A stretch of DNA of 63,220 nucleotides, counting the filler, from Octopus bimaculoides (taxonomy: Eukaryota), in assembly GCF_001194135.2 (NCBI RefSeq). It is 7 parts of 7 records of this genome, joined end to end, with 100 filler letters (N's around TTAATTAATTAA, not from the genome) between each part and the next. Parts side by side here need not be neighbours in the genome. Positions count along the whole stretch, not along the records: positions 12,967 to 20,420 come from NC_069001.1; positions 20,521 to 42,140 come from NC_068998.1; positions 42,241 to 56,432 come from NC_068999.1; 4 more parts are not named here. One strand, 5' to 3'. The position numbers were made by a program, and so were the translations under genes. The notes beneath the pieces are model-generated. The model saw nothing but the letters and a program-made list of their open reading frames with translations. It ran no database searches and was not told the origin of the DNA. The stretch's first letter is position 1, and every line of letters begins with the position of its first letter. Positions 15,330 through 42,982 of this stretch are shown one piece after another.

Positions 15330-15420
15330 GACTTCTTTCATTATTGCCCACAAGGGGCTAAACACAGAAAGGACAACACACACATGTGGGGACAATAAAC
15401 ACATGAAAAAATGGGGTAAT
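15330..15420 (-). mobile_element. Isolated LINE/SINE 3' tail in reverse orientation
   Basis: The minus strand reads TTAGCCCCTTGTGGGCAATAA, matching the Tx1 3' end TTAGCCC-TTGTGGCCAATAA (18672-18691) at 19 of 21 positions. Confidence 0.7.
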
Positions 15421-15439
15421 GAAATTATACAATGACGAT

Positions 15440-15810
15440 AGGACAGCCACCCTGACCCCGCTCCGGCGTGGTTACGTTATTTCAGTTATTTCAAAAACGT
15501 CTTTCACAGTTCTTTCAATTTAAATCGCTACTTAACACTTTAAGTTCACCATTGGAGCGCCTGGTTCGAAATCCACCTCGGGCCCCAGTGAGTTTATGTC
15601 AGATAGGAAAGCCTCCTTTAACATTTTATACTTGTTCTTCACCATCAACACCCATTTCGTCTCTTTATCATAACCCTCCAAGGGCTTACTTTAACTGTTT
15701 TTCATTTTTTCTCTTTTCCTTTCTATTTTCTGTGTCTATATTATGCTGCCTCTGTTTTTCTATATTTCTATATTTCTATATAATAATAATAACAACAACA
15801 ACAACAATAA
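15440..15810 (+). mobile_element. Probable 3' UTR of a Tx1-related element with a (TAA)/(CAA) tail
   Basis: CTGACCCCGCTCCGGCGTGG resembles CTGACCAGGCTCCCGTGG just after the ORF2 stop (18484). A T-rich tract then leads into a simple-repeat tail. Confidence 0.4.
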
Positions 15811-15820
15811 TGATAATATT

Positions 15821-16042
15821 CACAGACACGACAGAGCTGGGACCTACATACACTGGAAGCTATGCCAACACTATGGAATAACAACAAAATAAAGATGGTA
15901 TAGGCACACATCAGAAAAAATCACAGAAAATGAGAAAGCAACCATACTTGAGGATATGCCAATACACACAGATAGAGAAATTAAGGCCAATAGGCCAGAT
16001 ATAGTTGTCAGAGATCGTGAAGAAAATAAATGCTTTCTAATT
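15821..16042 (+). pseudogene. R4/Dong-clade non-LTR retrotransposon fragment: restriction-like endonuclease (RLE) region
   Basis: One frame reads HRHDRAGTYIHWKLCQHYGITTK*RWYRHTSEKITENEKATILEDMPIHTDREIKANRPDIVVRDREENKCFLI, containing the RHD and NRPDIVV motifs of R4-clade RLE domains. Confidence 0.85.
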
Positions 16043-16084
16043 TGTTATACCCACACACAACACACCACCAGCACACATACTTTA

Positions 16085-18740
16085 AACATATCGTGTCGAC
16101 CGGGAGCGGGCGGTGGGGGTACTGCGGTGCTATTTTGGAAAGGCCTGGATTTGAAAATAAAGGCAGTCTTCCTGGATCCAGAAGGTAAGTTGGTGGTCCT
16201 GGACGTCGATAGTAGTGACAGCGCTGTCTTCAGACTGCTGGCTTCTTACGCTCCGACAGGAGCAGCGCAGTCGGATTATTTCAAACGTCTGGAGGTTTTC
16301 CTGGGTACTTCTCGCACTTGAGTGCTAGTTGGGGATTGGAACGCTGTCTTAGACGAACGTATCGATAGGGTGGGCACGGGAGCATCTGATAGGAGAGTGG
16401 GGTGCAAGAGCCTCGCCGACCTGCTCAGACGCTTTCAGCTGTCCGGGACGAACGGTAGGACGGACGACNNNNNNNNNNNNNNNNNNNNNNNNNNNNNNNN
16501 NNNNNNNNNNNNNNNNNNNNNNNNNNNNNNNNNNNNNNNNNNNNNNNNNNNNNNNNNNNNNNNNNNNNNNNNNNNNNNNNNNNNNNNNNNNNNNNNNNNN
16601 NNNNNNNNNNNNNNNNNNNNNNNNNNNNNNNNNNNNNNNNNNNNNNNNNNNNNNNNNNNNNNNNNNNNNNNNNNNNNNNNNNNNNNNNNNNNNNNNNNNN
16701 NNNNNNNNNNNNNNNNNNNNNNNNNNNNNNNNNNNNNNNNNNNNNNNNNNNNNNNNNNNNNNNNNNNNNNNNNNNNNNNNNNNNNNNNNNNNNNNNNNNN
16801 NNNNNNNNNNNNNNNNNNNNNNNNNNNNNNNNNNNNNNNNNNNNNNNNNNNNNNNNNNNNNNNNNNNNNNNNNNNNNNNNNNNNNNNNNNNNNNNNNNNN
16901 NNNNNNNNNNNNNNNNNNNNNNNNNNNNNNNNNNNNNNNNNNNNNNNNNNNNNNNNNNNNNNNNNNNNNNNNNNNNNNNNNNNNNNNNNNNNNNNNNNNN
17001 NNNNNNNNNNNNNNNNNNNNNNNNNNNNNNNNNNNNNNNNNNNNNNNNNNNNNNNNNNNNNNNNNNNNNNNNNNNNNNNNNNNNNNNNNNNNNNNNNNNN
17101 NNNNNNNNNNNNNNNNNNNNNNNNNNNNNNNNNNNNNNNNNNNNNNGAGCCGTTCAACATATCGCGTTCGGTTCGCCAAGGATGTCCTGTCTCCTCCCTT
17201 CTGTATGTATTGACTCTAGAGCCATTACTGCGGAAGTTGGAGGCTTTGGGAGACTTGATTGGCGAGACACTAAACGAGTACGAAGCGGTGACAAGTGCGA
17301 AAATTAACGCGGAAAAGTCAGTGGGCTTGCAACTGGGCACCTGGAGGGGCACGTCCATGTCGTCCAACAGCCTCGTAGTGCGCTGGACAGACGGACCCGT
17401 TAAACTGCTCGGGGTCTGGTTCGATCCGGACCTCCAGGAGGAGAAAAACTAGGAAGAGGTGACGAACAGGGTAGCCAATCTCACCCAGAAATGAGCCGAG
17501 AGGAAGTTATTCCTGAACGGTCGAGCGGAGGTGGAGAATGCGTACATCGCATCCGTCATCTATTACCGCTTGACCGTCGTCCCTTGTCCCGACCGCTGGT
17601 TGGCCAAGCTGGTACGCTTGCTCTTCGACTTTTTGTGGAAGGGTCAGGTACCACTGGTCAGGCACTCCATCTGCTGTCAACATCCGCTGAACGGAGGCCT
17701 TGGCATGCCATGGTTGCTACGACACCTCAAGCGTTTCCTGGACGGTGAACAGGTGTGGTCGCCGTTCGTCAGTTACGATTTTCCGCAGCTCGTTTCTTTA
17801 ATAGAGCTGCAATCCTGGATCAAACGTAGACCGAAAAAGGGCGCTTGGCACCTCGAGTGCCACCAAGCTCTCACCGCCATCAGCCAGGCGAGCAATGTGA
17901 TCGGTAGTAGCTCTACTCTATCGTTCTGTAGAGGGTTAATGGAGGAAAAGTGCGACGACGTTCTCGGGGAAACTCTAGGCGTCGAAGATAATCAGTTAAA
18001 CAATCTGTTCGGAAGAATATTCGGAAGTGCCGTCAGCCGGGCCTGCCCGAGATGCGCTCAGGACGACGAAACCGTTCTGCACGCACTCGTCCAGTGCCCG
18101 AGTATTGCTGACCTATGGATTTATGTCAAACAGCTACTGTCACGTGTAGGACGGATCCGGCTATCAGCTGAATCCATCGTGAAGATTGACCCGCCCATCT
18201 CCATTAACCGGGAGGGCAAGGCAATTTTCCTATGTTTAGTGGCGGTAGCGAAAGAGAAGGTATGGTGGACCCGTTTGAAAGGGCTAAAGTCAGACACTTT
18301 CCTCTTTGGCCAAGGCCTCATCAACTTTCTCAAGTTCCACTTGAAAAGGAAGATGAGAGTAGAGAGAGAAGTGCTGTCTCATAGCAAATTTGTTGAAAGA
18401 TGGGTGACTGTTGGAAGAATTTGCCAGTATGAACGGACCAATTCTGAGAATACACCTGTAGAAAAAGGTAATATTTTTATTTACTGACCAGGCTCCCGTG
18501 GCTTTTATGGGTTTTTCTACGTGTAACCTTTCGAAGTGCCTCCCCCTATTGGGAGTTTTATTTGTTATATCTTTCTCTGTTTTTTCTACTGTTTACACGA
18601 ACGTTTTCTTTTCGGACAAAACCCTTTGTAACGTTCGTCCTGTCTTTGTCCTTACATGTTCTTAATTTATATTAGCCCTTGTGGCCAATAAAACTAGAAT
18701 TTATTATTATTATTATCATTATTATTATTATTATTATTAT
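16085..18740 (+). mobile_element. Tx1-clade LINE, 5'-truncated ORF2 pseudogene (APE endonuclease, RT, C-terminal zinc finger) with 3' UTR and (TTA)n tail; gap at 16469-17147
   Basis: APE: GTAVLFWK...YAPT...LVGDWNAVLD. RT: SVRQGCPVSSLLYVLTLEPLLR, AKINAEKS, VKLLGVWF, GGLGMP. Zinc finger: CPRC...ETVLHALVQCP (18044-18097). Stops at 16319, 17450 and 17492. AATAAA at 18687, then (TTA)n. Confidence 0.92.
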
Positions 18741-18860
18741 TGTGTGCTTATTAACTATGTTACCACCTATATGGAGTTTTAATATAATAGTGTGCACATA
18801 TACGTATGTTCTGCACACATACAGACACACGCACACAAACACACACACGCACACAGACAC

Positions 18861-18942
<82 letters not shown>

Positions 18943-41233: not shown

Positions 41234-41279
<46 letters not shown>

Positions 41280-41815
41280 GCTCCACAACCATCACAGCCA
41301 CTACCAGTTATTCCATTTTAACCAACACCAATACCGTCAGCACTGCCGTCCTGTACCCATGACGTTATCACCACCACCACCACCACCACCGACACTACTA
41401 CAACTACCAACACGCTATTACCACCACCAACACTATCACCACAATCACCAGCACTACCACCCTTCATCACCACCATCACAAACATCATCATCATCATCGT
41501 CATCGTCATCGTCGTCGTCGCCGTCGCTGCTCTGCAAAACCACTCTAAACCTTAACTGGCTTTTATCTTGTAAACCGCTTTTAATAGCCGCAAGAGAGAA
41601 GCTGTCCGGCTGATAAAGTATGTAATGTGATGAAATGTTTTCTGCTGTAGGTGTGACAAATTGCTGCTTCCTCCATTCTCTCTTATGGTCGCCATATTAA
41701 TTACCATCTTTATCTTGCCGCCATTTGCAAACATATTCCATGACGTCATACACTGTTGACCTTTTTCAACTTTAACAGCATAAAATATCCGTTATTCCTT
41801 TTCTGATATTCATTA

Positions 41816-41820
41816 CATGT

Positions 41821-41918
<98 letters not shown>
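41816..41918. repeat. Long (GT)n tract; other long pure tracts are (AT)n 54464-54539 and (TAA)n 59733-59811
   Basis: Read directly from the sequence. Confidence 0.97.
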
Positions 41919-41919
<1 letters not shown>

Positions 41920-42107
41920 TGTGTACGTACACATAGACATATATGTGTATATATGTGTGTGTGTGTGTATATGGATGTATATGTATGTATGTATGTATGT
42001 ATGCATATGTATATGTGTATATACACACATATATATACATGCATACGTGTAGAAATATACATACATGCGTATATGTATTCATAGATGTATATATATTAGT
42101 ATGTATA

Positions 42108-42140
<33 letters not shown>

Positions 42141-42774
42141 NNNNNNNNNNNNNNNNNNNNNNNNNNNNNNNNNNNNNNNNNNNNTTAATTAATTAANNNN
42201 NNNNNNNNNNNNNNNNNNNNNNNNNNNNNNNNNNNNNNNNATATATATATATATATACGTGCGCGCACACACATATATATACATAGTTCCCCAAGAAATA
42301 GACTGTCATCGCAACAGGTCCCTGAATTTGCATACTTGCGATTTTGACACTAAACCCTATATCTAAAACCTGGCTGCTACATTAAGTTGCAAAATTTTCT
42401 ACGGTAAGCGCTAAAGCGAAACTCCTGAATGGGTTTTTGTTGAGTGAGCGACAAAACATAATGCTTTGCTTAAGAGATTGTCCGCTATTTTTGTCACCCA
42501 TCAAAGCACAGTAAATTGAACATATAGTGGTTTCTATGTATTTCCCTCAAAACATAGATTGCTGAAATCTGATCTAGCCACAAGGCGGTGAGCTGGAAGA
42601 ACCATTAGTATGTCACACCAAACACTTAGCGACATTTAGTCTGTCTTCGTGGGATGGGTACAAGACATAAGAAAGAGAAGGTTTTAGTGTAGTTTCCTCG
42701 GATGGATATTTAATCATAGGTAATTAAAAACACACAAACAATGAATGAGGAAATATATAAATCGAGTTTATTAA

Positions 42775-42982
42775 TGATCCTTTCTACTGTAGGCACAAGG
42801 GCTGAAGTTTGTGGGAGAAGTCGACTACATTGGCACCAGTGTTTCACTGGTGCTTAGTTTATCGACCCCGAAAGGATGAAATGCAAAGTCAACCTCGGTG
42901 GAATTTGAACTCAGGACATAAAGACGGACGAAATGTCGTGAGAGATTTCGTCCGGCGTGCTAACGATTCTGCCAGCTCAGCG
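42775..42982 (-). mobile_element. SINE family B, tail type 1; a degraded family B head lies on the plus strand at about 42574-42650
   Basis: TTTATCGACCCCGAAAGGATGAAA...GAATTTGAACTCAG...CGTGCTAACGATTCTGCCAGCTC. Confidence 0.85.

Follow-up and report, generated by a model that had tools for sequence, protein, structure and literature searches.

In L2, CR1 and RTE pairs, template switching gives short interspersed elements (SINEs) the tail of a long interspersed element (LINE), whose protein binds the stem-loop of that tail and begins target-primed reverse transcription. We analysed a stretch of 63,220 nucleotides from Octopus bimaculoides (assembly GCF_001194135.2; seven parts of seven records joined with filler, hereafter the window), in which a LINE of the L1/Tx1 group and the family SINE-B carry a CTTGT-loop hairpin shortly before their 3' ends. 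Comparable systems are the eel pair UnaSINE1/UnaL2 and the bivalve CR1/L2-tailed SINEs: there a tRNA-type SINE shares a 3' stem-loop with a LINE, the stem shows compensatory changes and a short repeat tail takes the place of poly(A) (PMC3747384, PMC4824008). L1-clade terminal hairpins with a fixed loop and a variable stem are also found in SINEs of maize and sorghum (ZmSINE2, ZmSINE3/LINE1-1_ZM) and of Chlamydomonas (SINEX-3_CR/L1-1_CR; PMC3747384). An earlier note, made from the window sequence alone, had described a Tx1-SINE partnership as rarely documented. In the survey of 58 SINE/LINE pairs in PMC3747384, only three SINEs are L1-tailed, all plant or algal and none animal. Stringent 3' recognition has been proposed as the ancestral L1 state, lost later in mammals (PMC3747384).

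We conclude that cephalopod SINEs and an animal L1/Tx1-group LINE form a genuine tail partnership, which is better supported than the window by itself had suggested. That the SINEs are copied by the protein of the second open reading frame (ORF2p), which would recognise the hairpin, is probable (about 70%). The elements have in common the terminal position of the hairpin, its loop, compensated stems and the lack of poly(A); in addition, squid SINEs are flanked by target duplications, and one SINE-B body is found with two different tails.

A fixed hairpin at the 3' end of an octopus LINE family

The window consists of animal DNA rich in microsatellites, and gaps make up 16% of it. All seven stretches quoted in the earlier note, the five hairpins included, are present in it. 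The LINE comprises the following features.

16085..18487 (+): L1/Tx1-group LINE ORF2, 5'-truncated and decayed (endonuclease piece, gap, reverse transcriptase end, zf-RVT region)
18488..18700 (+): LINE 3' untranslated region (UTR), the last ~87 nt of which (18608-18694) are covered deeper than the remainder
18675..18685 (+): LINE terminal hairpin GCC-CTTGT-GGC, pair probabilities 0.85-0.89, with AATAAA next at 18687-18692
18701..18741 (+): (TTA)n, either tail or target; poly(A) absent

The closest named relative of the window ORF2 is a protein of Argonauta hians (53%). Its Pfam domain matches within the window are weak, and its pieces align to the squid-type ORF2s described below with 33-36% identity. 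Sequencing reads cover all 28 bins of the LINE end (18380-18715) in 4/4 runs. Contigs from other loci, with 21-29 letter differences, cross UTR and hairpin unbroken (X1 record 6; X13 records 10, 13 and 14; X3 record 22), and no variant at >=20% is listed in 18669-18694. The junction between ORF end and UTR is bridged by X1 record 1 and X3 record 17, and the whole of 18380-18715 is crossed by no contig. Past 18694 the loose ends are GAATT plus ATT repeats, not poly(A), in 4/4 runs. The hairpin is the fixed 3' end of an ORF2-bearing L1/Tx1-group family. Depth rises several-fold at 18608, indicating that the last 87 nt are common to more families or to truncated copies.

SINE-B tails and their continuation into the gap

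SINE-B is represented by five copies with a common head and body. The tail is common to B1-B3, B4 diverges at ~61049 and B5 ends differently. A further hairpin lies in a LINE-like 3' end, here called tail C.

23744..23925 (+): SINE-B B1, 5' damaged, main-type tail, hairpin 23900-23912
25755..25957 (-): SINE-B B2, main-type tail, hairpin 25770-25782, then ATT repeats
42775..42977 (-): SINE-B B3, main-type tail, hairpin 42791-42803 with one pair broken, for which folding is not predicted
60883..61083 (+): SINE-B B4, head and UCON3-like body as in the other copies, other tail from 61049; family reads put the hairpin in the gap 61084-61551
15335..15760 (-): tail C, 3' end of a LINE-like element with a short reading frame and a ~190-nt UTR

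The SINE-B head contains a B-box-like GAGTTCAAATTCC and an A-box-like stretch (by eye), and ARAGORN and Rfam gave no match. The main SINE-B tail, the most frequent one in the octopod, contains the hairpin and lacks AATAAA. Tail C carries GCCC-CTTGT-GGGC at 15346-15358 (-), and its likeness to the window LINE 3' end was equalled in 2/1000 shuffles. The frame preceding it is short, K/E-rich and unlike ORF2, with no match to ORF1 or ORF2 of the squid-type LINEs; tail C may thus terminate an ORF1-only (half-LINE) element. An older SINE-B-like copy at 62489-62624 (-) has a UCON3-like body and a third, unrelated tail.

The core C-CTNGT-G occurs 12 times in the 53,263 non-N bases of the window. A stem of >=3 bp surrounds 4/12 cores, and all four are element ends (the LINE at 18675, tail C at 15346, B1 and B2); the B3 core has one inner pair only. 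CTTGT in all-G/C 3-bp stems was observed four times; 200 local base shuffles gave 0.055 on average, and none reached four (0/200). In this count B1 and B2 are non-independent, as members of one family. Folding predicts the inner three pairs with a probability of 0.85-1.0 in the LINE, tail C, B1 and B2, and of 0 in B3.

Two RNA and two DNA runs were mapped to B4. Roughly 0.5% of the RNA records fall on it (64,609 of 12,895,792 and 54,635 of 11,974,664); these reads are equal on both strands and are therefore not evidence of SINE transcripts. The commonest loose end, at 61048, is the B1-B3 tail (5,699 and 4,974 reads; 1,458 and 1,741 contigs), and past this position the B4-type depth is roughly one third. 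From B4 the earlier note had predicted the sequence to be expected after 61083, and at the level of the family this sequence was found. Reads running from 61083 into a second SINE copy carry GTCTGGCCCCTTGTGGGCAATAAAGAAATA (839 in X21, 384 in X22) or the variant GTTTAGCCCCTTGTGGGCAATAAAGAAATA (84 in X21). Both variants contain the GCCC-CTTGT-GGGC hairpin and AATAAAG, and one is the predicted string. Since the letters past 61083 are reported by joint-bearing reads only, they describe tandem copies and not necessarily the 61083 locus. The B4-type tail is similar to tail C and to the LINE of the window, and the presence of two tail types on one SINE-B body points to at least two tail captures in octopods.

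Octopod SINE heads often follow ATT repeats in the RNA reads. The head-to-tail SINE joint, with a period of ~217 nt (60897-61083), is seen in >1,000 RNA reads of X21 and 540 of X22 and in only 1-2 DNA contigs. This RNA excess could be read as a highly transcribed tandem locus or as circular SINE RNA.

A sister LINE lineage in squid-type DNA

Searching with the ORF2 alignment, we found 40 loci in one bacterial bin, G001, all on small contigs and with 43-44% to the octopod-like protein P0003. The bin is titled Arenicella and is a GTDB representative; its small contigs (L005-L044) are squid-type animal DNA, largely LINE arrays, and represent host contamination. As Sepioth-like SINEs lie on the same contigs, the DNA would be that of a loliginid-type squid, and the comparison is one of octopod with squid. 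A reading of these LINEs as cross-phylum relatives was rejected because the Ceph-SINEs on the contigs mark squid-type DNA. The same alignment found no match in viral contigs; in metagenomes it found only 4 distant loci (32-35%) in which the hairpin is absent, the 3' end being reached in L001 and L002 only. Tail and body patterns matched neither viral nor metagenome contigs.

The squid-type LINEs are intact, have two ORFs and form head-to-tail arrays of 6.4-6.8 kb. In ORF2, Pfam identifies an endonuclease, a reverse transcriptase and zf-RVT; in ORF1 it identifies a CCHC knuckle. The best PDB relative of the squid-type ORF2 is human L1 ORF2p (E 5.5e-74, versus 9e-24 for R2), and the octopod-like protein P0001 matches the same two at 2.7e-50 and 3.6e-24, in lists composed without RTE, CR1 and L2. 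In a quick tree the octopod-like proteins are sister to the group holding the squid-type LINEs (SH-like approximate likelihood ratio test 100); as its 31 rows are unnamed, we use the group label L1/Tx1 rather than Tx1 or another L1 branch. With an N-terminal AP-type endonuclease, a reverse transcriptase nearer to L1 than to R2, a C-terminal zinc region and a separate upstream ORF1 bearing a CCHC knuckle, the elements belong to the L1 superfamily (L1/Tx1 group). A decayed ORF1 of the window (13.4-14.2 kb) is homologous to the squid-type ORF1.

13372..14208 (-): decayed ORF1 (zinc knuckle), same LINE lineage, tblastn E 0.001-0.003 to squid-type ORF1
15038-15310 (+): second ORF1 start, head to head with the 13372..14208 piece

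All squid LINE ends (40/40 loci) show GGC-CT[T/C/A]GT-GCC, a second hairpin, AATAAA and the unit end. These loci overlap and amount to about nine subfamilies in two clades, and the hairpin is present in both clades. The loop, which the earlier note had called invariant, is so in the octopod copies and not in the squid LINEs, where it reads CTTGT, CTCGT or CTAGT, hence C-U-H-G-U. Array-terminal copies enter the flanking DNA without poly(A) after AATAAA.

The second squid hairpin (e.g. L028:7441-7460) varies in sequence by subfamily with 5-8 pairs kept, and is absent from the octopod ends. On contigs C5, C9, C12 and C19 of the bin, LINEs that are young and intact form long, homogeneous head-to-tail arrays with no poly(A), one subfamily per array, for which self-targeted insertion and satellite-like amplification are both conceivable.

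Squid SINEs and short elements with the same loop

SINEs on the LINE-bearing squid contigs are, by eye, near-identical to the printed Sepioth-SINE1 and 2A (PMC5786205 supplement). Their tail carries TGAC-CTTGT-GTCA ~30 nt before the end with pair probabilities of 0.93-0.99, and the copies lack poly(A) and are flanked by target-site duplications of 13-16 bp. The same loop is enclosed by GGC/GCC and TTGAC/GTCAA stems at the ends of two short tandem units, of 286 and 388 bp.

The short squid elements with this terminal hairpin are GC-rich and highly structured, their units are doubled, and they lie at L056:17420-18900, L063:11370-11610 and L064:13000-13390; they match no Rfam family at gathering level. 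Just past the short tandem units there is a hairpin like the histone 3' stem-loop, below the Rfam threshold (L053:2503-2547).

Covariation and sequence searches link the tails

Base pairs were counted in 15 ends (5 octopod, 6 squid LINE, 2 short units, 2 Ceph-SINE); the L063 element was left out of this count and included in a squid-only model. Across the 15 ends 93% of 60 cells are paired. The closing C-G is invariant, and double changes occur in 3/4 pairs (10 cells), with the second pair being G-C, A-U or C-G. The covariation score of 0.49 was reached by 0/500 shuffles, with slid controls at <=0.13, and two measures less sensitive to relatedness were matched by 18/500 and 21/500. The claim that the stem changes while pairing is retained thus holds between families; it fails for B3, whose mismatch, given the predicted pair probability of 0, marks a decayed copy and not covariation.

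A profile hidden Markov model of nine squid LINE ends, built with no octopod input, placed B2, B3 and B1 at the top of the window (E 0.0008, 0.0014 and 0.0027; next 4.5). Two other cut-outs of the LINE ends gave the same top three, and a covariance model put B1-B3 at window ranks 1, 2 and 4. Conversely, a search of the 4.5-Mb bin with B2 returned 32 matches at E <=1 (best 0.037), and in 31/32 it is the B2 tail that lies on a LINE end. The match between the main SINE-B tail and the end of the squid LINE spans ~30 nt and is not confined to the loop. In this one other set of animal DNA the SINE tails therefore match L1/Tx1-group ends, as the partnership proposed in the earlier note would have it. 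All five octopod hairpins are among the 8 matches of the squid-only model at E <=10 (ranks 1, 2, 3, 4 and 7).

Interpretation and alternative explanations

The common 3'-terminal sequence or structure and a stem-loop with compensatory changes are features of stringent SINE/LINE pairs, and the partnership of the earlier note is supported; none of the three outcomes named there as contrary was observed, the SINE tails having been compared with LINE ends of the one squid-type bin. Stringent recognition of the hairpin by the reverse transcriptase would be the corresponding mechanism. We propose that an L1/Tx1-group LINE lineage of octopods and squid ends in a short predicted C-U-H-G-U-loop hairpin, and that several SINE families likely took up this tail and are copied by the LINE ORF2 protein. 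This protein would bind the hairpin, possibly reading loop and stem shape and not stem sequence, upon which reverse transcription would start; priming may take place 10-45 nt past the hairpin, where the element has its short A/T-rich or (ATT)n end. Tails would have been captured by template switching, at least twice in octopod SINE-B and separately in squid Ceph-SINEs. Whether a larger claim holds is, in our view, an even bet: the 13-nucleotide C-U-H-G-U hairpin could be the RNA recognition signal of a coleoid-wide L1/Tx1-group lineage and the first stringent L1-type system in animals, captured repeatedly by unrelated SINE bodies (UCON3, Ceph domain, short GC-rich units), the driver of much octopus SINE expansion and the missing partner of the Sepioth-SINEs.

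Several results weigh against the partnership. All squid evidence comes from a single bin. The alignment was anchored on the loop, the stem has just 3-4 bp and its changes lie between families; once the squid SINE-like rows are left out, only the octopod LINE and tail C supply double changes. Of the anchored Ceph-SINE matches only 7/11 have a stem of >=3 bp (one of the 11 is not a tail), other folds are predicted for the two short tandem units (hairpin pair probability <0.1), and the L063 element (three identical copies) has an A-C mismatch in its stem. B1-B3 score above all 40 shuffles for L028 only, one of four LINE units tested; for the three others the scores are inside the shuffle range, yet 5/9 best matches fall on the LINE end. 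The squid-only model reaches E <0.05 for 1/5 octopod hairpins. Neither an octopod LINE with the main SINE-B tail nor a squid LINE with the Ceph-SINE stem was found in the searched DNA, nor was the element that owns tail C. Finally, the resemblance to the LINE 3' UTR that the earlier note had seen at 61053-61083 in B4 is non-significant: taken alone, these 31 pre-gap bases were matched by 149/1000 shuffles against the LINE 3' UTR and by 73/1000 against tail C.

The SINE tails might derive from the LINE lineage while the hairpin serves 3'-end formation or RNA stability, with ORF2p priming in a relaxed, mammalian-L1 style on A/T-rich ends. The short stem fits this, as does the AATAAA or near match that follows the hairpin in the LINE, tail C, the B4-type reads and the squid LINEs. 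The commonest octopod tail, however, has the hairpin without AATAAA, insertions lack poly(A), and the hairpin is retained on unrelated SINE bodies where the remaining tail has diverged, which makes this explanation rather unlikely. Somewhat less probable still is that the main SINE-B and the Ceph-SINEs have their true partner in an RTE, CR1/L2, Dong or Penelope LINE, and that the L1/Tx1-group hairpin came in by tail exchange. A LINE with exactly the main SINE-B or Ceph-SINE tail was not recovered from the same animal, Ceph-SINEs contain an RTE 5'-UTR piece (PMC5786205), and Octopus vulgaris has active RTE, Dong-R4 and CR1 elements (PMC13282606). On the other hand, the hairpin is found at the ends of the octopod sister clade as well as of the two squid LINE clades, ~30 nt of the main SINE-B tail match a squid LINE end, and the Sepioth-SINE tail, labelled 'unknown3' in the 2018 survey, stayed 'unknown' there after a Repbase-wide comparison (PMC5786205).

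Chance or convergence is the least credible account, and we give it very little weight. The core has only 7 bases, the stem is short, CCTTGT also occurs stemless inside two other SINE families, and the in-window bases of B4 alone carry no significance. Against this, the prediction for the gap was made before the data and came true, the blind profile ranks B2, B3 and B1 on top, and in about eight families the distance between hairpin and element end is always 10-45 nt. Chance is largely refuted for the SINE-B tails, and least so for the octopod GCC/GGC ends compared with the squid ends.

Such a partnership would supply the missing animal case for ancestral stringent L1 recognition, and the very small signal together with intact young ORF1/ORF2 copies makes the proposal testable. 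It would offer a candidate engine for octopus SINEs and a candidate donor for the Sepioth-SINE tail listed as unknown.

Other features of the window

The two head-to-head ORF1-type pieces in 13372-15760 have a common 5' UTR, and the ORF1-like sequence A had no match among longer proteins. Wedged between tail C and the LINE is a short frame with an RPDIVV motif (15820-16060, +), which may resemble the C-terminal end of LINEs of the restriction-endonuclease type. A second, long-bodied SINE family (4475-4780, 26827-27187, 33601-33711, 36435-36559) has an internal CCTTGT with no stem and a GTCTGTGTTTGTCCCC stretch resembling the start of the B4 tail. A third SINE group, CORE-like by eye, is without the hairpin (11291-11560, 20769-20960, 47079-47183, 63055-63220). 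Two further features are as follows.

22250..22340 (-): possible further decayed tail, GCC-CGGGT-GGC, TAATAAT, then (ATT)n (by eye)
45521-46012 (-): Mariner transposase piece (Pfam HTH_48, E 5e-15)

Comparison with known systems

Searches of the open literature turned up no description of a cephalopod SINE with an L1/Tx1 tail; subscription papers, Repbase or Dfam may hold one. Octopus vulgaris has 80 L1-Tx1 families, 13 of them recently active, and SINEs make up 11.6% of its genome, mostly unclassified among recent insertions (PMC13282606). The printed consensus sequences of Sepioth-SINE1 and Sepioth-SINE2A contain the hairpin (PMC5786205 supplement); the link of Ceph-SINEs to L1/Tx1-group ends consists of hairpin, position and layout, not of long sequence identity.

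The body of SINE-B follows directly after the head and resembles UCON3, with B4 60962-61016 matching printed rows of the PMC7245038 supplement by eye (unscored). UCON3-domain SINEs are alike also in exchanging tails between families; they are known from chordates, nematodes, cnidarians and xenacoelomorphs with RTE-like, CR1-like or unknown tails, and the 14 rows available contain no mollusc (PMC7245038). An assignment of SINE-B to the MetaSINEs was rejected, as by eye there is no likeness to BivaMeta-SINE1 or BivaMD-SINE1.

For the crocodilian pair SINEU/Tx1-Mar a Tx1 element has likewise been proposed as the SINE mover. That link, however, was drawn from target sites, the SINE ends in poly(A), and the authors found no LINE with the SINEU-1 3' end (PMC4494074). 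Compared with UnaSINE1/UnaL2 and the bivalve pairs, the cephalopod partner is an L1/Tx1-group LINE with a zinc-knuckle ORF1 and the stem comprises only 3-4 bp. The plant and algal L1 pairs share the L1-type partner, whereas the cephalopod case is from animals, has another loop and lacks poly(A).

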